64,000 bases of DNA from an uncultured Acidobacteriota bacterium (GTDB taxonomy: Bacteria > Acidobacteriota > Thermoanaerobaculia > Gp7-AA8): NCBI GenBank assembly GCA_963822445.1, contig CAWGHO010000003.1, forward strand, positions 832,001 through 896,000. The letters are read 5' to 3'. Within the stretch, counting starts at the first letter, position 1. Each line of letters opens with the position of its first letter. Under the pieces are notes generated by a model. It had not been told where the DNA came from. It searched no databases and worked only from the letters and a program-made list of their open reading frames with translations. Made by a program: the position numbers and the translations under genes. Below, in pieces: positions 43,221 to 55,826 of this stretch.

Positions 43221-46200
43221 TCACTCCATCCCAATCACAACCCCACCCGGCGCGCTGACCTCGACGGTCTTCTCCGCATACCCAATCGTCACCACCTTCA
43301 CCCGATACTTCCCTGGCGCAAGCGAGAACACGAACTCCGATCCGTCGGCGGTGCGTCTCGGACGGATCGGCAGGAGCGTTCCCTTCTCATCGGCGATGAC
43401 GAGGTGTGCTTCGAGCGGCGTTCCGTTTCGCGCGTCGACGACCCGCACGCGCAACTCCGACGCGGGCGCGAGCTCGAATTGCGCTCGGATCGCCGCGCTA
43501 CCGCCCGCGAGGACCTCCTGCGAGCGCTGCGCATACCCCGCGGCGGACGCTATCAGCAGGTGAGGTCCGCTCGCGGAAACGACCAGCGTGAACCGGCCGT
43601 TGAGATCGGTGATGGTCTCGCCTGAGAAAGCCGGCATGTTCGCGTTCACCGCCTCGCGGGGCACGAGCGTGACCAGAGCCTCGCGAATCGGCAGGCCGGT
43701 CGCGGCATCGAGCACGATCCCTTCGATGGTCTGCTCGGCGAGATGCACGTCGAAGGTCTCCGAGCCACGCACGTCCCGACTGGTCTGGTAACTCCGCGAC
43801 TGCAGCGCCTCGGCATGAACGAAGACCTGATAGCGCCCGCTGGCCGGCAGCCCGGCCTCGTACGTGCCGTCCTCGCGCGTCGTGGCGTTGACCATCCCGA
43901 ATTCTTCGTTGTGAAACACGACCTGCGCCCGCGCGACCGGCTTCGAAGCGCCATGCGTGACGCGGCCGCTGACGATCAACGCCGGTGTGAGATCGAGATC
44001 GACGCGCATTGTCTGTCCCGGCGAAAGCGCGACGCGCTTGCGGACCGTGGAGCGCGAGCCCGCCGCCGTCTCGACATGCGCGGCGATGTCCACCAGACCC
44101 GCCGGCGCGTTCTCGATCCGGTAGTTCCCCGACGCGTCGATCATTCCTTCGGCACCCCGTTCCGTCGATTGGGCGAAGACCGTTCCCCGCGCCATTTTTC
44201 CGCTGTCGCGGGGTAGGCCGGAGACAGTGCCGAAGACGACTCCGCGTCCGCGGCCATCGAGCTCGATCGTCACTTCGCGTCGCTGCCCGGGATCGACGTC
44301 GCCCACCTGCGCATGATGGGTCTCGAAGTTCGCGTTGAGCGTGTAGCGCGCGGCGATGAGCCCTTCCAGCGTGAACCGACCTCGCTCGTCGGTTGCGGCG
44401 GATTGATGATCCGAGCCGAGCGCGGACGTCGTGGCGTCGACGTTTGCGCCGGCGATCGGTTTTCCGTTGAGCGTGACGATCCCCGAAACCGTGAGGCCTC
44501 GCGCGAGGGTGATGTCGACACGCGTCTGCGGCTCGACGTCGATCGTCTTCCGCTGCATGACGTAGCCGCGGGCGCGGACGATGACCTGCGAAGAGCCGGT
44601 CTCGACGCCGGTGATGGTGAACGTGCCGTCTTCGCCCGTCGTCGCGGACATCGGACCCATGCGCGTCACCGACCGGCTGGACCGCGTGATCTCGCCGATC
44701 TCGCTCATGACCATGACCTGGGCCTCGAGCACGGGCTTGCCCTGCTCGTCGATGACTCGGCCGCTGACTGTTGCTCCGCGGCTCAGCGGAATCTCGACGA
44801 ATGCCTGCTCGCCTTCGACGATGCGGACTTCGCGCGGCTCCGAGGCGATGAAGCCGGTCGCCGCGGCAACGATGCGATACGCGCCGACGGGAACGGTCGT
44901 GTCGAACGTTCCGTCCTCGCGAGACTCGCCGCGCTGATGACCGCCGCGCCGGCGCTCGTTCCGCGGTTCATCGAGCGACTCGAGGGAGTACAGAAACTGC
45001 GGCACCGGCTTGCCGGTTGCCGCGTCGATGACGCGCCCGCGAAGCACGGCCACCGGCGGCAGATCGATGTCCAGTTCCGCCGGCGCTTCGACGGTCAACA
45101 CCCTGTCGACCATCTCCTCGGCCTTGAACACGGCCACGGTGAAGGTCTCGCGGGGAAGAGCGTCGAACACGAACTCGCCCTTTTCGTCGGTCTGCACCGC
45201 ACGCTCGCCGCGCGGCGCCGTGCCGCCGCGAAGCGTTACGTGTGCGCCGGACACAGGCTGCTTGCCGCGATGCACGCGGCCGCGGATCTGATGGCCGGTT
45301 TCGAGGGCGATGTCGATCGTCGTGGCGCGCGCGATCGATCGCGAGGTCGTCTGCTGCTGATGCTTCGGCGCGGATGCTGCGAAGACGTAGTCGTCGGCCT
45401 CGAGGTGGAGCATGGCTGTTCCGCCCGCGTCGGTCTTCACGCGCCGCCGCGCGGCGTGAGGCATGAGCAGGACGCCGGGATCGCCGAAACTCGCGATCTC
45501 CTCCGCGCCGGCGTAGCTGACATTCGCATCAGTCAGCGCCTTTCCCGCGCGATCGGTCACGCGAACGGTGACGGTCTCGAAGCGGGGGAGCGTGATGGTC
45601 GTGTTCTTCGCCTGCGCGAGCGGGAACGCTTTCGATCGCGTCGACGAATGGCGCGGCGGAGTCACCACGATCTCGACCGGATTCGTGTCCTCGAACGGCG
45701 GGGCAGGAACGGCGAACCGTCCGTCGGGGAAGGTGCGGGTGATGGGCTGGTGAAAATATTCGAGCGTGGGCCGGCCGGAAGGAACGAGCATCACATCCGC
45801 GCGCGCGACCGGTTTTCCGTCCGCATCGAGCACGCGGCCGGCGATGAGCTGCGCCGCGACGAGCTCGACGTCCTGCGACGCCTCGCGTGCCTGCGTCACA
45901 TCGGCGTACTGCATCTCGCTGTCGGCGTACATCCGACTCTCGTGAATCGATCGCAGGCGAGGCGACAGTCCATCGCCCATCGCCACCATGTAGCGTCCCG
46001 CCGCGACGTTGATGCGGTAGCGGCCTTTGTCGTCCGTGGTGATGGTCGTCGGCGAGTGGTAGACCTCGCCCAGGCCGTGAATCATCACCGGCGCATTCGC
46101 CAGCGGCTTCTTGCCGATGCGAGCGATGCCCGTGATCACGCGATCCCGTTCGACCACCGGTGCCGAAGTGGCGCGGCCAGCACGCATCGGCACGGCGCTG

Positions 46201-46496
46201 GTCGTCATGATCATGTCTTCGCGGCCGAGGGTGATGGTCAGGGGTGGATCGCCGGCAAGGGCCAGCAGTTTCGCGGCAGGCATGTTCGCCGCGCGCACCT
46301 CGATGTTGACGATCGAATCGGCAGGTGCGGTGACCTTGAAATGGCCGTCATCGGAGGTCGTCGCGCGTTGTGAACCGGCGGTGACGGCGGCTTTCGCGAC
46401 CGGCGTTCCGTCGGGCGTGTAGACGTAGCCTTCCACGTCGACCGCGAGTGCGGCGGGCGCGGCAAGCAGCATCAGCAGCAGAGCGAACCGTGTCAT
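43221..46496 (-). CDS. Secreted carboxypeptidase-regulatory-like (transthyretin-like) repeat protein
   Basis: Signal peptide; about 11 repeats of G.V.D..GKP...A.V...TD..G.F; the ORF-track N-terminal extension overlaps the next gene. Confidence 0.88.
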   Translation of the reverse strand: MTRFALLLMLLAAPAALAVDVEGYVYTPDGTPVAKAAVTAGSQRATTSDDGHFKVTAPADSIVNIEVRAANMPAAKLLALAGDPPLTITLGREDMIMTTSAVPMRAGRATSAPVVERDRVITGIARIGKKPLANAPVMIHGLGEVYHSPTTITTDDKGRYRINVAAGRYMVAMGDGLSPRLRSIHESRMYADSEMQYADVTQAREASQDVELVAAQLIAGRVLDADGKPVARADVMLVPSGRPTLEYFHQPITRTFPDGRFAVPAPPFEDTNPVEIVVTPPRHSSTRSKAFPLAQAKNTTITLPRFETVTVRVTDRAGKALTDANVSYAGAEEIASFGDPGVLLMPHAARRRVKTDAGGTAMLHLEADDYVFAASAPKHQQQTTSRSIARATTIDIALETGHQIRGRVHRGKQPVSGAHVTLRGGTAPRGERAVQTDEKGEFVFDALPRETFTVAVFKAEEMVDRVLTVEAPAELDIDLPPVAVLRGRVIDAATGKPVPQFLYSLESLDEPRNERRRGGHQRGESREDGTFDTTVPVGAYRIVAAATGFIASEPREVRIVEGEQAFVEIPLSRGATVSGRVIDEQGKPVLEAQVMVMSEIGEITRSSRSVTRMGPMSATTGEDGTFTITGVETGSSQVIVRARGYVMQRKTIDVEPQTRVDITLARGLTVSGIVTLNGKPIAGANVDATTSALGSDHQSAATDERGRFTLEGLIAARYTLNANFETHHAQVGDVDPGQRREVTIELDGRGRGVVFGTVSGLPRDSGKMARGTVFAQSTERGAEGMIDASGNYRIENAPAGLVDIAAHVETAAGSRSTVRKRVALSPGQTMRVDLDLTPALIVSGRVTHGASKPVARAQVVFHNEEFGMVNATTREDGTYEAGLPASGRYQVFVHAEALQSRSYQTSRDVRGSETFDVHLAEQTIEGIVLDAATGLPIREALVTLVPREAVNANMPAFSGETITDLNGRFTLVVSASGPHLLIASAAGYAQRSQEVLAGGSAAIRAQFELAPASELRVRVVDARNGTPLEAHLVIADEKGTLLPIRPRRTADGSEFVFSLAPGKYRVKVVTIGYAEKTVEVSAPGGVVIGME

Positions 46497-46560
46497 CGCC
46501 AGTGAAAAGCGCTGCCGGGCGGTGAAATATTTGCAGTGCAGACTCATCGGAGGAAAACCG

Positions 46561-47333
<773 letters not shown>

Positions 47334-47335
<2 letters not shown>

Positions 47336-49374
47336 AAGCTCGCAGCGCGACTCTGTCCCCGAACCGCGCAGCCACCGCGGCCATCATCGTTTCGGTGGCC
47401 GCGTTCACTTCCTCGTTCGTCAGGGCGTGATCGGCGAGGTATTCGATCTCGAACGTGATCGCGTTGGCGTCCGGCAGTTCGAAGAGATCGGTGATGCGGA
47501 TCGTGCGGATGAAGGACGGCGCGGCGGCGAGCAGCGTCGCGCTGACTTCGCCGGCGCTGATTCCGCGCGGAATCGCATACGCCACATTGCGCACGACGGC
47601 CTGGCGTGAGGGCGGCTCGGTGTAGGTCTTCGGCAGCGGCGATGCGAGCAGCGATTCGCTCTCGATCTCGAAATACACCGGCCGCTGGCGTTTGATGTCG
47701 AAGCGTTGCAGCACGGAGCGGATGAAGCTCACCGACGATGCCGCGCAGCGATCCATTGACCTGGATTCTGGCGCGGCGGCCGGGATGGAAGAAGGACTCG
47801 AGACGATGTCCGTCTGATGCGACCAGCTGGATGTCGACGCGGAGCTCCAGCCGCAGTTGCTCGAGGATGCCTTTGACGTAAATCGCGTCGGCGTTGCGTC
47901 CTTTGTCACCCCAGAACGGACCGCGATCGCGGCCGTTGACCAGCCCCCACAGCACGCCCTGTTCGGAGAGATCGGCGAGGTAGATCTTCGCCCACTCGTA
48001 AATCTTCAGGCTGGCGGTCTTGAGGTTGAGGTTCGTGACCAGCGCGTCGAGCGCCTGCGCAAGCGTGTTGTTGCGCATGAGCGAGTAGTTCTTCTCGATC
48101 GAGTTCTGCATCTCCACGTGCGGCCACAAGGCATCGCCTTCGACGACGCCGAGGCGGTCGCGCATGCCGCGGCCGTAAAAGCTGTCGGTGAAGATCTCGT
48201 AGAAACCTTCGGCGACGAGGACTTCGTTCACGTGCGCGACGACGTTCTCTTCGTGCGACGGCAGCGCGCCCATTTCCACGTGCGGCAGCGTAACCACTGT
48301 CTCGTTGTAGCCCACGCTCTTCACCAGCTCCTCGGCGATGTCCGCCTCGAAGTGCACATCCCAGAGGCGATGGGGAGGCACGATCGCGCGGAACGTCTGC
48401 TCGTTCGGATCCTCAATGGCGAAGCCGTAGCGCGTCAGGCGATCGGCCATCTGCATCGCGCTGATTTCCGCGCCGATGAAACGACGCATCGCCGGAACGT
48501 GAACTTCGATCGTCCTCTGCGGATCGCGCCAGTCGCCCGCGGCGTAGGCATTGCCGATGCGATAGCCGGAGTATTTTTCCAGCAGATACGCGACCCGCGA
48601 GGCACCGATGAGCGGCAGACTCGGATCGCCGCCGCGCATGAAGCGCGCCGCGGCATCGGTCGGTTGATCGAGCTTTCGCGAAGCGATGCGCACGGCAACC
48701 GGATCGAAAGTCGCGGACTCGAGGAGGATTCGCGTCGTCTTCGGCGTAACCGACGACTCCACGCAGCCGATGACGCCGGCGATGCCGAGGATCTTCGACT
48801 CGTCGGCGATCACGAGCGTGCCTTCGGGGATCTCCACGGCTTCCGGCGTGAAGAGCATCCACGCCTTTTCGTCTTTGCGCGACGTGCGAATGATGATCGG
48901 TCCGTCGATCGTGTCCGCGTCGAAGGCATGCGTCGGTTGGCCGATCTCGATGTTGGCGAGGTTCGACGCGTCAACGGACGCGCTGATGGAATGGATGTCG
49001 GCAGCGGTGAGGGGGAGGAGAGCTTCGCCTGGCAGCACACCGCCATCGGTTTTGAACAGCTCCGTCACCGTGTACACGAGACAGAGCGGCGACTCGATAC
49101 GCACGCGATCGGGCGTCGCGTTCTGCCGGTTCAGTGTCGCAACCGGCGGATAACGCAACCGCCCGCCCGTCCGCCCGCTCGCTTCGCGGGCGATGCCGGC
49201 GTAGCAGTAGTGATCGCCGCGGTTCGCCAGGAGCTCGACGTTGAACACCGTGCCGAGCGACGAGGTCTCCGCGGTTTTCACTTCGATGCCGACGTCGTCG
49301 AGGAGCTCGCGCGCGTCGTGCAGGCGCTCGGGCATGTCGATGAAGGTGCGCAGATGTTCAAGGAGGATCTTCAC
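47334..49374 (-). CDS. pheT: Phenylalanine--tRNA ligase beta subunit, short divergent form (one +1 frameshift near 47718)
   Basis: GTGA overlap with pheS; ANRGD...GIARE, GQPTHAFD, ESATF, D.....DIAEE, HPGR.A, GELHP, then C-terminal FDX-ACB in the next frame (PVYFEIE...LTNEEVN...LRA). Confidence 0.9.
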
Positions 49375-50429
49375 AGGCCCCCTCGGTGGATGGTGCGGTG
49401 AACGCGCAGGTCCTGTTCGTAAAGCGGTTTGAGCGCGGTCATGCCCGCGGCCTGCGCGGCGATGCGCGTTGTGCCGAGGCCGAAGGCGATGCCGCTGACC
49501 CGGGTGTGGTCGTAGCCGAACTCGATGAAGACCTTGGGATGGATCATCCCCGAGCCGAGGATGGTGATCCAGCCCGCGCCGCGGCAGGTCGGGCACTCGT
49601 CGGTCTTGCCGAAGCAGACCGCGCACTGGATGTCCATGCCCACCGAGGGCTCGGTGTAGGGGTAGTACTTCGGCTTGAAGCGGAACTTGTGCTCCGCGCC
49701 GTAAATCGATTTCGCGATCTCCAGCAGCGTGCCTTTGAGATCGCCGAAGGTCAGGCCTTCCTCGACCCAGATGCCTTCGAACTGGTGAAACATCGCCAGG
49801 TGGGTCGCGTCGACAGCCTCGTTGCGATACACACGGCCCGCGGCGACGACTTTGATCGGCAGGGGAGGCTTCGATTCCAGCACGCGGGCCTGCACGGTGG
49901 TGGTGTGCGAGCGCAGGAGCATGTTGTTCGGCAGCCAGAACGTGTCCTGCATGTCCCGCGCGGGATGGTTCTCGGGGATGTTGAGCGCGTCGAAGTTGTA
50001 ATACGGCGTCTCGATGTCCGGCCCCGGCTCGAGCCGGAACCCGAGCCGGCGCATGACGTCCATGCACTTTTGATGGACCTGGGTGAGCGGATGCGTCGAG
50101 CCGCGCTGCTGGGCGATGCCGGGTAGGGTGAGGTCCTGCCACTCGCTCTCGATCTGTTTCGCAACCGCCGCCTCGGCGACTCGGGCGTTGGCTTCGTCGA
50201 GCTCGCGCTCGATGTGTGCTTGCAGGTCGTTGAGGCCTTGTGCGAATTGCGCTCTGATGTCCGCATCCATCGAGCCGAGCGATTTGAGCTGCTTTCTGAC
50301 GTCTGACTTCTTACCGAGATACTTCGTCCTTAGCTCATTCAGTTCCTCAGGGGTCTGCGCGTCTGAGAGTTCGGTATCGAACGTGGCTCGGATGTTGTCC
50401 GCCGCTTCGGCGGGTATGAGCGGTTTCAC
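49371..50429 (-). CDS. pheS: Phenylalanine--tRNA ligase alpha subunit, divergent
   Basis: HPL, NFDALN.P..HPARDMQDTF, GRVYRNE..DATH, FHQ.EG, TEPS, CxxC..CxxC, G.AFG.G; GTG start overlaps the lysS stop. Confidence 0.93.
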   Translation of the reverse strand: MKPLIPAEAADNIRATFDTELSDAQTPEELNELRTKYLGKKSDVRKQLKSLGSMDADIRAQFAQGLNDLQAHIERELDEANARVAEAAVAKQIESEWQDLTLPGIAQQRGSTHPLTQVHQKCMDVMRRLGFRLEPGPDIETPYYNFDALNIPENHPARDMQDTFWLPNNMLLRSHTTTVQARVLESKPPLPIKVVAAGRVYRNEAVDATHLAMFHQFEGIWVEEGLTFGDLKGTLLEIAKSIYGAEHKFRFKPKYYPYTEPSVGMDIQCAVCFGKTDECPTCRGAGWITILGSGMIHPKVFIEFGYDHTRVSGIAFGLGTTRIAAQAAGMTALKPLYEQDLRVHRTIHRGGL

Positions 50430-51960
50430 GCAGATTCCTCTGAGCCTGTGAGCCTCTGAGCCTCTGAGCCTTCCGGCTCCTCGGCCTCCGGCTTCATCAA
50501 CGGAAACCAAACCACATCCCGCAGGTTCGGCGCATCCGTCAGCAGGGCGACGAAGCGATCGATGCCCATGCCCCAGCCGGAGATCGGCGGCATGCCGAAC
50601 TCCATCGCCGTCAGGTAATCCTCGTCGGCGGGCATGGCCTCGTCGTCGCCTTTCTTGCGCAGCTCGGCCTGTTCCTCGAAGCGGCGGCGCTGGTCGAGCG
50701 GGTCGACGAGCTCGGAGTAGGCGTTGATCACTTCCCACGTATCGACGACGAGCTGGAAACGATCGACGGCATCGGGATTCGTGTCGCTGCGGCGAGCGAG
50801 CGGGGAGAGGTCGACGGGATGGCCGACGATGAACGTCGGCTGGATCAGCGTCGGACGCGCGGTGCGCTTGTAGAGCTGGTCGATGAGGCTTCCGCGGCCC
50901 GCACCGGGATTATCCAGCTCGACCTTCACCGCGAAGATCGCTTTGCGCAGCGAATCGGCGTCTTTGTACTGATCGATGTCGATGCCGCTGTGCTCGCGGA
51001 TCACATCGCGCGAGCCGGCGCCGCGGCCAGGGCTGCTCGAAGTCGATGGTCTTGCCGCCGCGCTCGATCTGCAGCGTGCCCACCGCCTCCTTGATCGCAT
51101 GCTTGAGCAGCGCCTCGGTGAAGGTCATGTTGTCTTCGTAGTTCCAGTAGGCCGCGTAGAACTCCAGCATCGTGAATTCCTGGAGGTGCGACGCGGCCAG
51201 ACCTTCGTTGCGGAAGCAGCGCGCGAACTCGTAGACGCGGTCGTAGCCGCCGACGATGAGACGCTTGAGATACGTCTCCGGCGCAATGCGCAGGACGAGA
51301 TCCATGTCGAGCGCGTTGTGATGCGTGAAGAACGGCCGGGCCAGAGCGCCCGACTGCGTGCGTGTTGAGGATCGGCGTCTCGACTTCGACGAAGCCGCTG
51401 CGGTTCAGGAAGTCGCGCAGCGCATTGACGGACTTCGTGCGCACGCGAAAGCGATTGCGCGTCTCTTCGTTCGACACGAGATCGAGGTAGCGCTTGCGCC
51501 AGTTCAGCTCCGATGTCTTTGACGCCCTGGTACTTGTTCGGCGGCGGATTGCAGGGTCTTGCCGAGGAAGATCCAGTTGCGGACTTTGATGGTCAGCTCG
51601 CCCTTGTCGGTGTGGTACATCTCGCCTTCGACGCCGAGGAAATCCCAGCGGTCGACGGTTTTGGAGAAGAGCTCGTACTTCTTCCGGCTCACCTCGGGAT
51701 CGTCATCGAGCTGATCGCGCGACGAGGGCGAGCTGGATGTGCCCGTCGAAGTCCTCCAGCGTGGCGAACGTGAGCTTCCCGAACTTGCGCAGCTGCCCGA
51801 CGCGACCGGCCGCGCGCACCTTCGTCCCATCCGCGAGCTTCATCGATTTCCGCGATGCGTGTGCGTGCGCTCGAAACGGTCCGGATGAACCTGAATCCCG
51901 GCGCGCCTCGAGGGCTTCTCGTTTTTCGATGCGGACGTCGCGGAGGGACTGCTCGGCCAT
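50426..51960 (-). CDS. lysS: Lysine--tRNA ligase (class II), broken by about 8 single-base insertions
   Basis: Fragments in successive frames: R.FGKLTF (OB fold), [74 protein letters not shown]. Confidence 0.92.
50437..50470. repeat. Single-arm octamer array (CCTSTGAG)x4 inside the lysS 3' end
   Basis: cctctgag cctgtgag cctctgag cctctgag; same unit family as 51983-52071. Confidence 0.85.
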
Positions 51961-51982
51961 AGGGGCGGGAGAATAGCAGACG

Positions 51983-52071
51983 AGGCTCAAAGGCTCAGAG
52001 GCTCAAAGGCTCAAAGCAGAGGCGTGTCCATTCATGACCTTTGAGCCTCTGCGCCTTTGAGCCTTTGAGCC
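51983..52071. repeat. Inverted octamer arrays (AGGCTCAR)x4 ... (CCTYTGMG)x4
   Basis: Units at 51983-52014 and 52038-52069, between divergent genes. Confidence 0.9.
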
Positions 52072-52094
52072 ATGCGATGCACAATGCCCCGCCC

Positions 52095-53311
52095 ATGAAC
52101 GTCGACCACATCCGCGCCCAGTTTCCCGCTCTCGAACGCACGCCACAACGGCCATCCCGTCGCGTACTTCGATGCGCCCGGCGGGACGCAGGTGCCGCGC
52201 GTCGTCGCGGAGGCGATGACCGACTATCTCTTTCACCACAACGCCAACACGCACTGGGACTATCCGACCAGCGAGGAGACCGACGCGATCATCAGCGGAG
52301 CGCGAGAAGCCGCGGCGGATCTGCTCGGTGCGTCACCGGACGAGATCGCCTTCGGCGCGAACATGACCACGCTCACCTTCCACCTGGCCCGCGCCCTCGG
52401 CCGGATGTGGTCGGAAGGCGACGAGGTGATCGTGACCGAGCTCGATCATCACGCCAACGTCGCGCCGTGGCGCGCGCTGGAGATCGATCGCGGCATCGAG
52501 GTCCGTTCGCGCGAAGCTGAATTGCGATGGCGGGCAGCTCGATTACGACCACCTCGCGTCGCTGGTCTCGCCGCGGACGAAGCTCATCGCCGTGGGCGGG
52601 GCGTCGAATGCGATCGGAACGATCAACGACCTGCGGCGAGTCGCGCAGATCGCCAAAGCCGCGAACGCGCTGCTGTTCGTCGACGCCGTGCATCTCGTGC
52701 CTCACGAGCTCCTCGACGTGCGCGAGATCGGCTGCGACTTCCTGGCCTGCTCGTCGTACAAGTTCTACGGTCCGCACGAGGGCATCCTCTGGGGACGCTT
52801 CGAGCTACTCGACACCCTGCCGTTTCCGAAGCTGCTGCCGGCGCCGGACACCGCGCCGGAGCGGGTGGAGACGGGAACGCAGAACCACGAAGGCATCGCC
52901 GGAATCACAGCGACGATCGATTTCCTGGCGTCGATCGGCGGAGAGGGCGGCACACGACGCGAACGGCTCGGCCGCGCCTTCGCCGGACTTCACGAAGAAG
53001 GGCAGCGGTTCGCGGCGATGATCTGGGAAGGGCTCAGCGCGTTGCCGCGAGTCCGTGTCTACGGACCGCCTCCCGGTCAGCCGCGCACGCCGACGATCTC
53101 CTTCACGATCGACGGCATGCACGCCGATGACGTGGCCCGCGCGCTTGCCGCCGAAGGTCTGTTCGTGAGCAGCGGCGACTTCTACGCGGCGACTGTCTGC
53201 GAGCGGTACGCGGTGGAGAGTCTGGTGCGGGTCGGATGCGCCTGCTACACGACGGAAAACGACGTGCGCCGGCTCGTTGACGGTGTGGCGCGGATCGCAT
53301 CGGTGCAGTAG
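52095..53311 (+). CDS. Cysteine desulfurase-like protein (TIGR01976/VC1184-type class V PLP enzyme), two +1 frameshifts (about 52140, 52510)
   Basis: R.QFPAL, YFDAPGGTQVP, FGANMT, LDHHANV.PW, ASN..GT, VDAVH, CS.YKF.GPH, ETGT, GDFYA in place of GHHCA. Confidence 0.88.
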
Positions 53312-53936: not shown

Positions 53937-54039
53937 TAGTAGGCAGTAGGCAGTGGGCAGTAGGCAGTGGACCGCCACCCACTCCCGTCGTGGTTGGGCG
54001 GCGGCCTCCTGCCTACTGCCCACTGCCTACTGCCCACTA
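53937..54039. repeat. Inverted heptamer arrays (CAGTRGG)x4-5 ... (CTGCCYA)x4
   Basis: Units at 53937-53970 and 54009-54039, filling the rhodanese-archease spacer. Confidence 0.9.
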
Positions 54040-54441
54040 ATGTTCGAGGTCATTCATCACACGGCCGACGTGCGGCTGCGCGTTTCCGCGGCCACGCTCG
54101 AGGAGCTTTTCCGCGATGCCGTCCGCGGGATGTACGCGGTCATGCGCGGCGAAGCTCGCGGCGGCGCACCCGTTCATCGCGTGATCGCCGTCGACGAATC
54201 AGCTGACACGACCGCGCTGCTGGTCGACTTTCTGAACGAGGTCCTCAATCGCGCGCAGATCGGGCAGGAGATGTTCGAGGACGTGCGCTTCACCCGATTC
54301 GAGCCGGAGTCGCTGACCGCGGAGCTGACTGGCACAGCGCCTGCGGAGTTCGAGGAGGATGTGAAGGCGGTGACGTACCACGAAGCAGACGTCTGTCGCG
54401 AGAACGGCGGATGGACGACGATGCTGGTGTTCGACTTATGA
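54040..54441 (+). CDS. Archease
   Basis: HTADV (N-term), LLVDFLNE, VKAVTYH, C-terminal FDL; ATGA overlap with rtcB. Confidence 0.93.
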   Translation: MFEVIHHTADVRLRVSAATLEELFRDAVRGMYAVMRGEARGGAPVHRVIAVDESADTTALLVDFLNEVLNRAQIGQEMFEDVRFTRFEPESLTAELTGTAPAEFEEDVKAVTYHEADVCRENGGWTTMLVFDL

Positions 54442-55826
54442 ACAAATCCAACCTCGAGAAAATCAACGACCATCTCTGGGAAGTGCCGAAGAGCTTCCGC
54501 GGCGACATGCGCGTTCCCGCTCGCGTGTACGCGACGGAACAGATGCTCGACGCGATCCTGCGCGACCGCTCGCTCGATCAGCTGGTCAACGTGGCCACGC
54601 TGCCGGGTATCCGCAAGTACGCGATCGCCATGCCGGACGTGCATGAAGGCTACGGCTTTCCGATCGGCGGCGTGGCGGCGGTGGACGCGCAGGACGGCGC
54701 GGTGTCGCCGGGCGGCATCGGCTACGACATCAACTGCGGCGTGCGACTTCTCCGATCGACGAAGACCTTCGACGAGATCCAGCCGCTGCTGCAGAAGCTC
54801 ACGCATTCCTTGGCGCGCGGCGTCCCGTCGGGCGTCGGCCGCGGCGGAAGCGTGCGGCTGAAGAAAGAGGATCTCGATCTGATCCTTCGCGATGGCGCCG
54901 CGCGCGCTGTGGCGATGGGATACGGCGATGCCGAGGATCTGAAGCACATCGAATCAGGCGGCCGTCTCGACGGCGCGGAGCCGAACGAAGTGTCGCAATC
55001 GGCACGCGAGCGCGGAGCCGACCAACTCGGAACGATCGGGTCAGGCAATCACTTCGTGGAGATCGATCGCGTGGACGAGGTGTACGACGTCGAGGAAGCC
55101 GAGCGTCTAGGCATCGTCCGCGGCGGCATCGTCATCCAGATCCACACCGGCTCCCGCGGCCTCGGCCACCAGGTCGCCACCGACTCTCTCCGCGTGATGA
55201 CCAAGACCATGGCCAAATACGGGATCGAGGTCGCCGATCGCGAGCTGGCCTGCGCGCCGCTCAGCTCGGGCGAAGGGAAGCAGTACTTGCGTGCGATGGC
55301 GGCCGCGGCGAATTTCGCATTCGCCAATCGGCAGCTGATCACCGCCGCGATCCGCCGCGCGTGGCTGCACGAGCTGACCGACGATCGCATCGACATCGTT
55401 TACGACGTCGCCCACAACGTCGCGAAGGTGGAGCGCTATCCCGATGTCGGCGAGGTGGTCGTGCACCGCAAAGGCGCGACGCGCGCATTTCCGAACCAGC
55501 CGGTGCTCATCCCCGGCAGCATGGGTACAGCCTCCTACCTCCTTCTCGGACAGGACGGCGCGATGAAACAGAGCTTCGGCTCGAGCTGCCACGGCGCGGG
55601 CCGGACGATGTCCCGAACGAAAGCGCGCACGGAGATCAATGCCGAGGAGTTGAAGGGGCGGCTGAAGAAGCTCGGGATCATCGCCGAGGCCGGATCGTCG
55701 AAGGGGCTCGTGGAAGAGGCGCCCGAGGCGTACAAGGACATCGATGCCGTGGTCGATGTCGTGGCCAAGGCCGGCATCGCGAAGAAGATCGCGAGGTTCA
55801 AGCCCGTGGCGGTGATCAAGGGGTAG
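54438..55826 (+). CDS. rtcB: RNA 3'-phosphate/5'-OH ligase RtcB
   Basis: MPD.H.GYGFPIG, DINCG, GNHF.E, H.GSRG, HN.AK, HRKGATR, PGSMG, SSCHGAGR, EEAP.AYKD. Confidence 0.97.
   Translation: MNKSNLEKINDHLWEVPKSFRGDMRVPARVYATEQMLDAILRDRSLDQLVNVATLPGIRKYAIAMPDVHEGYGFPIGGVAAVDAQDGAVSPGGIGYDINCGVRLLRSTKTFDEIQPLLQKLTHSLARGVPSGVGRGGSVRLKKEDLDLILRDGAARAVAMGYGDAEDLKHIESGGRLDGAEPNEVSQSARERGADQLGTIGSGNHFVEIDRVDEVYDVEEAERLGIVRGGIVIQIHTGSRGLGHQVATDSLRVMTKTMAKYGIEVADRELACAPLSSGEGKQYLRAMAAAANFAFANRQLITAAIRRAWLHELTDDRIDIVYDVAHNVAKVERYPDVGEVVVHRKGATRAFPNQPVLIPGSMGTASYLLLGQDGAMKQSFGSSCHGAGRTMSRTKARTEINAEELKGRLKKLGIIAEAGSSKGLVEEAPEAYKDIDAVVDVVAKAGIAKKIARFKPVAVIKG

Follow-up and report, generated by a model that had tools for sequence, protein, structure and literature searches.

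Phenylalanyl-tRNA synthetases (PheRS) are listed in the consulted entries of AARS Online under the families PheRS-A, PheRS-B and PheRS-M only. In this work, we focus on a PheRS alpha subunit encoded by the gene pheS at positions 49371..50429 (minus strand) of a 64,000-nucleotide stretch of DNA from an uncultured Acidobacteriota bacterium (GTDB lineage Bacteria; Acidobacteriota; Thermoanaerobaculia; Gp7-AA8; assembly GCA_963822445.1, contig CAWGHO010000003.1, positions 832,001 to 896,000 of the forward strand). This whole stretch will be called the window. The closest described system is the canonical bacterial PheRS-B alpha subunit (E. coli 3PCO, P. aeruginosa 4P71, M. tuberculosis 7K98/7DAW). 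The window protein has the same domain order, a coiled coil at the N-terminus and then a class II core, the same motif 2 and motif 3 arginines, the FHQxE element, the alanine at the floor of the pocket, a four-Cys insert (as in P. aeruginosa and S. haemolyticus) and an adjacent pheT gene, and it passes the bacterial PheS model TIGR00468 with 271.1 bits for a cut-off of 237.45. It differs from PheRS-B in that its identity is 35-45%, that the ring cage reads Tyr-Pro-Tyr instead of Phe-Pro-Phe, that Gly264 and Thr289 stand where the M. tuberculosis enzyme has its pair of Mg2+-binding glutamates, that a Thr or Ser precedes the motif 3 Arg, that Lys254 is invariant, and that it belongs to a fully supported branch of its own.

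Two other systems deserve a comparison. The archaeal and eukaryotic PheRS-A alpha subunit (human 3L4G) also has a Tyr at the second position of the ring cage (PMC8136816), but the window protein reaches 189.1 bits with the archaeal-type PheS model NF003210, below its cut-off of 350, and its sequence, its length and its PheT with an FDX-ACB domain are bacterial. The drug-insensitive synthetase copies that are transferred or sit in producer clusters (mupirocin and IleRS; discussed in PMC5388404) are likewise patchy across phyla, and the variant described here is found as a second copy beside a cluster in two actinomycetes. Unlike such copies, the window pheS is the sole copy and has no cluster nearby, and neither an inhibitor nor a resistance phenotype is on record for the variant type.

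We consider it very probable that the window pheS encodes the sole housekeeping PheRS alpha subunit of a divergent bacterial lineage, that it was acquired by xenologous replacement, and that its active site has been remodelled as a package. According to this explanation, an ancestor of the Thermoanaerobaculia genus would have taken up a foreign pheS-pheT pair, which would now lie behind lysS and be coupled to it in translation; the native pheST pair, placed after rplT in relatives, would have been lost. The enzyme, with an editing-competent beta subunit, would still activate Phe and charge tRNA-Phe. The package would comprise the change of both ring-cage Phe to Tyr, that of the two Glu that bind Mg2+ in M. 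tuberculosis PheRS to Gly and Thr, that of the acidic residue before the motif 3 Arg to Thr or Ser, and the fixation of Lys254.

Substitutions in the PheS active site

The pheS gene starts with GTG and encodes 352 residues without interruption. The open reading frame (ORF) had been called intact, and its unusual residues no indel artefact, when the letters alone were read; this holds, though the neighbours pheT and lysS are broken in the assembly. The protein matches the Pfam domains PF01409 (tRNA-synt_2d, 283.5 bits) and PF02912 (PheS N-terminal domain, 53.7 bits). It stays below the cut-off of 300 for the PheS-related ligase SrmL (NF051887, 108.8 bits), and far under those of the mitochondrial PheRS and SepRS models. 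Its fold, predicted with AlphaFold2 from a 50-sequence alignment, has a mean predicted local distance difference test (pLDDT) score of 89.1, and the top Foldseek matches of this model are all PheRS alpha chains, with target-normalised template modelling (TM) scores of at most 0.89 on catalytic-domain chains. The four-Cys insert (CxxC...CxxC) is ordinary, being also found in the PheS of P. aeruginosa and S. haemolyticus.

The substitutions were placed residue by residue against the solved PheS of P. aeruginosa, A. baumannii, S. haemolyticus and E. coli, and they fall in four stretches, all on the minus strand. The first, RSHTTTVQ (residues 173-180, 49890..49913), lies opposite lrtHTSpvQ of the solved proteins, so that HTTT faces HTS(P/G) and Thr177 takes the place of the canonical Ser of HTS. 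The second (residues 254-266, 49632..49670) consists of Lys254 followed by YYPYTEPSVGMD (residues 255-266), which lies opposite (f/y)FPFTEPS(a/v)EvD; it carries Tyr256, Tyr258 and Gly264 in addition to the Lys. The third begins with GWIT (residues 286-289, 49563..49574) and extends as GWITILG (residues 286-292) opposite GW(l/i)E, with Thr289 standing for Glu279 of M. tuberculosis. The last is motif 3, GIAFGLGTTR (residues 313-322, 49464..49493), opposite GFAFG(m/l)G(a/v/p/m)(e/d)R; it retains Ala315 and Arg322, and the residue that precedes the Arg is a Thr and not an acidic one. The four motif differences listed by the sequence-only reading are thus all confirmed by these alignments, which also refine it: a third conserved Glu is gone, as PSAE has become PSVG with Gly264.

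These residues are a fixed feature of the variant type. We counted them in alignment columns of 149 rows of the variant clade and 123 canonical rows, which were not de-duplicated and in which some genomes stand twice. Five positions are uniform in the clade (149/149): Lys at 254, where 85/123 canonical rows have Ser; Tyr at 256 and at 258, where Phe is found in 116/123 and 117/123 canonical rows, respectively; Gly at 264, where 113/123 have Glu; and Thr at 289, where 120/123 have Glu. Two more are nearly so, with Thr or Ser at position 321 in 137/149 clade rows (Glu or Asp in 114/123 canonical ones) and Thr at position 177 in 136/149 (Ser in 111/123). This pattern of substitution is far above chance. 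As a second refinement, the change of Phe to Ile at position 314 is variable within the clade (Ile in 93, Phe in 39 and Leu in 15 of 149 rows).

The meaning of these positions can be read from described structures. In M. tuberculosis PheRS, the alpha residues Phe255, Phe257, Ala305, Arg201 and Thr258 hold the ring of Phe, Ser177 is part of the hydrogen-bond network around its amino group, and Glu263 and Glu279 bind an Mg2+ near the pocket, as described in PMC8136816. The equivalent cage positions are Phe258 and Phe260 in T. thermophilus (PMC8555319), and Asn410 and Tyr412 in human cytosolic PheRS, Tyr412 being the equivalent of M. tuberculosis Phe257 (PMC8136816). In our alignment with the M. 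tuberculosis protein, Phe255 and Phe257 map to Tyr256 and Tyr258, Glu263 of the PSAE stretch corresponds to Gly264, and Glu279 of the WVEW stretch to Thr289. The window PheS is therefore devoid of the canonical Phe-Pro-Phe ring cage, which is replaced by Tyr256-Pro-Tyr258, and of the Glu pair that binds the Mg2+.

Much of the active site is conserved around these changes. The window PheS keeps the motif 2 Arg, the motif 3 Arg, the FHQxE element and Ala315 at the floor of the pocket. R202, Q216, E218, A315 and R322 are invariant in the 50-sequence alignment, and F214 is a Phe in 149/149 clade rows and 122/123 canonical rows. His175, Gln216, Glu218 and Arg202, which contact the substrate through its amino and carboxyl groups, are kept, and so are the residues in contact with the adenine and phosphate. 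Since these contacts are preserved, the specificity for Phe is probably unchanged, and it is the metal and ATP side of the active site that is likely to have been remodelled, with a different binding of metal and ATP.

Phylogeny and gene order

We computed two trees, one with FastTree (192 rows) and one by a quick search of IQ-TREE under LG+C20 PMSF (86 rows), both unrooted. The split between variant and canonical PheS has a support of 100 in each of them, and the motif set corresponds to one side of this branch, which bears out the distinct PheRS clade that had been proposed from the letters. Within the variant side, the genus of the window forms a group with a support of 100, itself included in a set of 35 rows with a support of 99 that is mostly composed of metagenome-assembled genomes (MAGs) labelled as Myxococcota. 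The canonical class relatives of the genus are found on the opposite side of the tree, in a group with a support of 97. When the genus is constrained to group with them, the log-likelihood (lnL) falls by 165.5 units, and the approximately unbiased (AU) test gives this topology a p-AU of 4.8e-5.

The beta subunit has the same affinity. The PheT of the genus shows 44-53% identity to the PheT found beside most of the Myxococcota-labelled variant pheS and about 30% to that of the class relatives; the pheS-pheT pair has therefore moved as a unit. In the window, pheT (47337..49374, minus strand) encodes a protein of about 690 residues with the Pfam domains B3_4, B5, CLM and FDX-ACB, and with no B2 (tRNA_bind) domain. 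Its residues aligned to H265, G318, E334, T354 and A356 of the E. coli beta subunit, which we take to be editing-site residues, are kept.

The position of the pair is also peculiar. The class II lysyl-tRNA synthetase gene lysS (50426..51960, minus strand), whose pieces match PF00152, lies directly upstream. Its stop overlaps the start of pheS in the sequence GTGA, and the stop of pheS overlaps the GTG start of pheT in the same way, so that two GTGA overlaps join lysS-pheS-pheT. The unusual coupling of these three genes, already noticed by the sequence-only reading, is thus real at both junctions. Among the 24 loci of the genus, lysS is found at most 1.5 kilobases (kb) upstream of pheS in 17; among the variant loci outside the genus, one only has a lysS nearby, on the opposite strand. 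A relative (G005, L032:7356-10028, plus strand) shows a different arrangement, in which an ORF of 890 residues on the other strand lies between lysS and pheS and breaks the coupling.

In the relative G027, the order is thrS-infC-rpmI-rplT-pheS. In the window genome (G000:C2:266676-272010), thrS-infC-rpmI-rplT is followed by a convergent ORF of 624 residues, and the site after rplT is thus the empty ancestral site of pheST. Gene replacement accounts for the unusual gene order. Taken together, the gene order, the tree and the PheT comparison point to the insertion of a foreign pheST behind lysS and to the loss of the native pair. On these sequence comparisons, the pheST of the genus is best described as gained from another phylum by xenologous replacement.

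Copy number and cellular role

The window genome, which is 94.7% complete, contains one PF01409 match, so that no second canonical pheST is found in it. It also has a single pheT, a single lysS and a single ordinary tRNA-Phe(GAA). Exactly one PF01409 match is present in each of 23 of the 24 genomes of the same genus, and the genome without a match is 71% complete. We extended the count, as PF01409 matches above the cut-off, to 11 genomes that carry the variant. It is the sole PheS in seven of them, namely the window genome (G000) and six genomes from Myxococcota, Acidobacteriota, Planctomycetota, Micavibrio, Bdellovibrionales and Chlamydiia (G041, G042, G045, G047, G048 and G049). A canonical PheS stands beside the variant in the four others: a SAR324 MAG, a Methylococcaceae MAG, Sphaerisporangium flaviroseum and Streptomyces cinnamoneus. 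In the two MAGs (G043, with L156 and L161; G050, with L162 and L167), the presence of both types may be a true double set or a result of mixed binning.

The unusual residues are thus common in the sole-copy PheS of known groups. The idea of a repurposed paralogue, raised when the window was first read, does not fit a sole PF01409 match that is coupled to a complete PheT in a genome with one ordinary tRNA-Phe(GAA). On genome content, the window pheS can be considered as the working housekeeping PheRS alpha gene. Since its product is the sole PheS of a genome with a single tRNA-Phe(GAA), we infer that the enzyme activates Phe and charges tRNA-Phe.

Distribution of the variant type

The motif set is present in 24/24 aligned loci of the genus, the window being counted, and 6/6 aligned relatives from the order and class are canonical. 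These loci include one from an unpublished genome (L009, from G002), on which the claim does not rest. The identity of PheS is 76-83% within the genus (23 genomes with a match) and falls to 35-43% in 16 relatives of the order and class. We then drew 300 genomes evenly from the Acidobacteriota; 290 of them have a match, and the best one outside the window's genome has 45% identity; 5/5 other genera of the window's family are at the score level of canonical PheS. This draw includes three unpublished genomes (G030, G097 and G195), which leave the result unaffected.

Named close homologues come from Thermoanaerobaculia and Acidobacteriota MAGs. In a search of 1.84 billion cluster representatives, the best 150 included about 10 further clusters that share the motif set and are 40-68% identical. 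We also searched a collection with a single genome for each prokaryote species for DNA that encodes the degenerate motif K-[FY]-Y-P-Y-T-x-P-S-[VI]-G, which gave at least 119 loci. The whole motif set lies in a PheS ORF at 80/80 of the scan loci examined. A PheT match is found downstream of pheS on the same strand in 112 of the 119 loci listed, and in the remaining 7, pheS lies at most 160 nucleotides from the edge of the stored DNA. According to the record titles, the loci listed come from Myxococcota (30), Bdellovibrionota (23), genomes labelled as Pseudomonadota (33), Acidobacteriota (21, including 13 Thermoanaerobaculia), Planctomycetota (2), Actinomycetes (2), Chlamydiia (1) and a genome labelled as Bacteroidota (1), with 6 unplaced.

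In even draws from two phyla, the motif occurs in 38/61 genomes of Bdellovibrionota, the phylum of a Bdellovibrionales carrier (G048), and in 8/101 genomes of Myxococcota, the phylum of another carrier (G041), the centre genome being counted in each; a reversed-pattern control gave zero matches in both draws. Most of the Bdellovibrionota genomes searched thus have the variant type of PheS. Its occurrence is sporadic in Myxococcota, SAR324, Planctomycetota, Chlamydiia and Acidobacteriota, and in two actinomycetes it exists as a second copy. Given the 8/101 genomes of the Myxococcota draw, we rejected the name "Myxococcota-type" for the clade. We found no paper describing this PheRS type, and its motif strings are absent from the literature searched, supplements being outside the reach of that search; the enzyme type appears undescribed in that literature.

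Weighing the explanations

Several points weigh against the replacement of a housekeeping PheRS by a remodelled one. The Mg2+ bound by the two glutamates is described in PMC8136816 as near the pocket in one crystal form, and is not demonstrated there as the catalytic metal. The AU test was applied to a group that, although taxonomic in definition, was named once the tree was already known. As the trees are unrooted, they leave the variant state either derived or ancestral and the donor phylum unnamed, and the low frequency of the motif in the Myxococcota draw bears on the naming of a donor. The titles of MAGs are partly unreliable, with rows labelled Klebsiella, Enterobacteriaceae and Muribaculaceae among the variant genes. 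Finally, pheT and lysS are frameshifted in the window. The pheT gene has one frame change at about 47718: in a tblastn comparison with the intact PheT of G005, residues 1-560 lie in one frame and residues 561-690 in another. A frame-by-frame translation shows lysS spread over several frames, and it is an intact gene of 499 residues in the same relative. A class-V aminotransferase gene (52192-53311, plus strand) is also split into two frames. Because pheT and lysS are both essential, present once each and unbroken in relatives, we read the breaks as probable consensus indel errors. In every public sequencing run, at most 0.10 of the words sampled from window positions 47200-52100 were present.

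The alternative that survives best concerns inhibitors: the variant PheRS could be insensitive to a natural inhibitor of PheRS, and selection by this compound could have driven the patchy transfer and the replacement seen here. We regard this as possible and rather doubtful. It is compatible with the housekeeping explanation, to which it gives a reason for the replacement. It starts from the genomes of two cultured actinomycetes, identified from their record titles as Sphaerisporangium flaviroseum JCM 16908 and Streptomyces cinnamoneus JCM 4633, each of which has a canonical PheS plus a variant pheST. In both, the variant pair adjoins a homologous hybrid nonribosomal peptide synthetase-polyketide synthase (NRPS-PKS) megasynthase (L171:15180-19991 with L172:3-10683 on contig C39 of G044 for Sphaerisporangium; L173:17997-20000 with L174:62-14714 on contig C6 of G046 for Streptomyces). 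The megasynthases, of 3606 and 3088 residues, share 51% identity over 1402 residues and contain AMP-binding, PP-binding, KS, AT, luciferase-like monooxygenase, Condensation and second AMP-binding domains. A major facilitator superfamily (MFS) transporter gene lies near both clusters, which are completed by a P450 gene in Streptomyces and by a thioesterase-TylF-methyltransferase gene in Sphaerisporangium. Self-resistance copies of a drug target are commonly recognised by such a position beside a biosynthetic cluster, and these pairs are candidates for that role.

Other observations go in the same direction, namely the patchy distribution over phyla and the fact that the changes affect the ring cage of Phe and the surroundings of the adenylate site. 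In addition, a genome survey names PheRS among the synthetases that have known small-molecule toxins, and points to a PheRS paralogue of Azospirillum located close to PKS genes (PMC5388404). The Tyr-Pro-Tyr cage and the lost Mg2+ glutamates might then alter the binding of adenylate and metal, and hence give insensitivity to a PheRS-targeting natural product made by such NRPS-PKS clusters; this would explain both the passage between phyla and the displacement of the native enzyme in this soil genus, and we hold it as a tentative proposal. Against it stand the facts that the compound, the target and the resistance phenotype are without a known example, that adjacency to a cluster is no proof of resistance, and that the variant is simply the common PheS in Bdellovibrionota. 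Neither of the features of a self-resistance copy is found in the window genome, which has one copy and no cluster in its flanks: the genes around pheS are lysS, YceI, aminotransferase, rhodanese, archease and RtcB, with no biosynthetic genes among them. Carriage by plasmids was not seen either, as a tblastn search of 72,556 plasmid records returned 59 records, all below 45% identity and none of the variant type. No paper in our literature search connected PheRS with self-resistance and a gene cluster, and the titles listed by a broader search on genome mining included none about self-resistance through PheRS, although the supplements of PMC5388404 may list PheRS paralogues.

A change of amino-acid specificity, or the recruitment of a paralogue to another role, would account for the Tyr pair in the ring cage and for the loss of three conserved acidic residues. 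We consider it very improbable. The variant is the only PheS in 7/11 genomes, the window genome has one normal tRNA-Phe(GAA), and His175, Gln216, Glu218, Arg202 and Ala315 are kept together with the editing site of PheT. Human cytosolic PheRS, which has a Tyr at the second cage position, still charges Phe (PMC8136816), and the SrmL and SepRS scores of the window protein are far under their cut-offs. An altered specificity in a sole PheRS thus seems unlikely. Fast evolution of the native PheS in place, with no transfer, is the least probable of all: the sharp drop of identity outside the genus would suit it, but the genus is nested in a clade of other phyla that has every hallmark residue, its grouping with the class relatives is rejected by the AU test, the location of the pair has shifted from rplT to lysS, and PheT shows the same affinity.

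Other features of the locus

The short PheT could be taken as a hallmark of the variant. We rejected this, as a class relative with canonical PheS (G036) has a PheT of 676 residues that is also without the tRNA_bind domain (L035:7002-9029, plus strand); the loss of B2 is independent of the variant PheS type. A free-standing B2 gene beside pheS was rejected as well, the sole tRNA_bind match of the genome lying in a frame of 726 residues on another contig. Among the remaining genes, the archease gene overlaps the start of the RtcB RNA ligase gene (window 53953-55826, plus strand), which is an ordinary pair, and an ORF of 1180 residues lies at window 43221-46763 (minus strand).

Significance

The window itself is mostly ordinary: the residues of its PheS are those of an inherited enzyme type, and its gene order is the record of a replacement. 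Hundreds of genomes translate with a PheRS that has neither the Phe-Pro-Phe cage nor the two carboxylates that bind the metal in M. tuberculosis. The variant PheRS would be a natural test case for the rebuilding of the ATP and metal site of a class II synthetase. As PheRS is an antibacterial drug target, the spare copy found beside the NRPS-PKS clusters of two actinomycetes also offers a lead for the target-directed mining of inhibitors.

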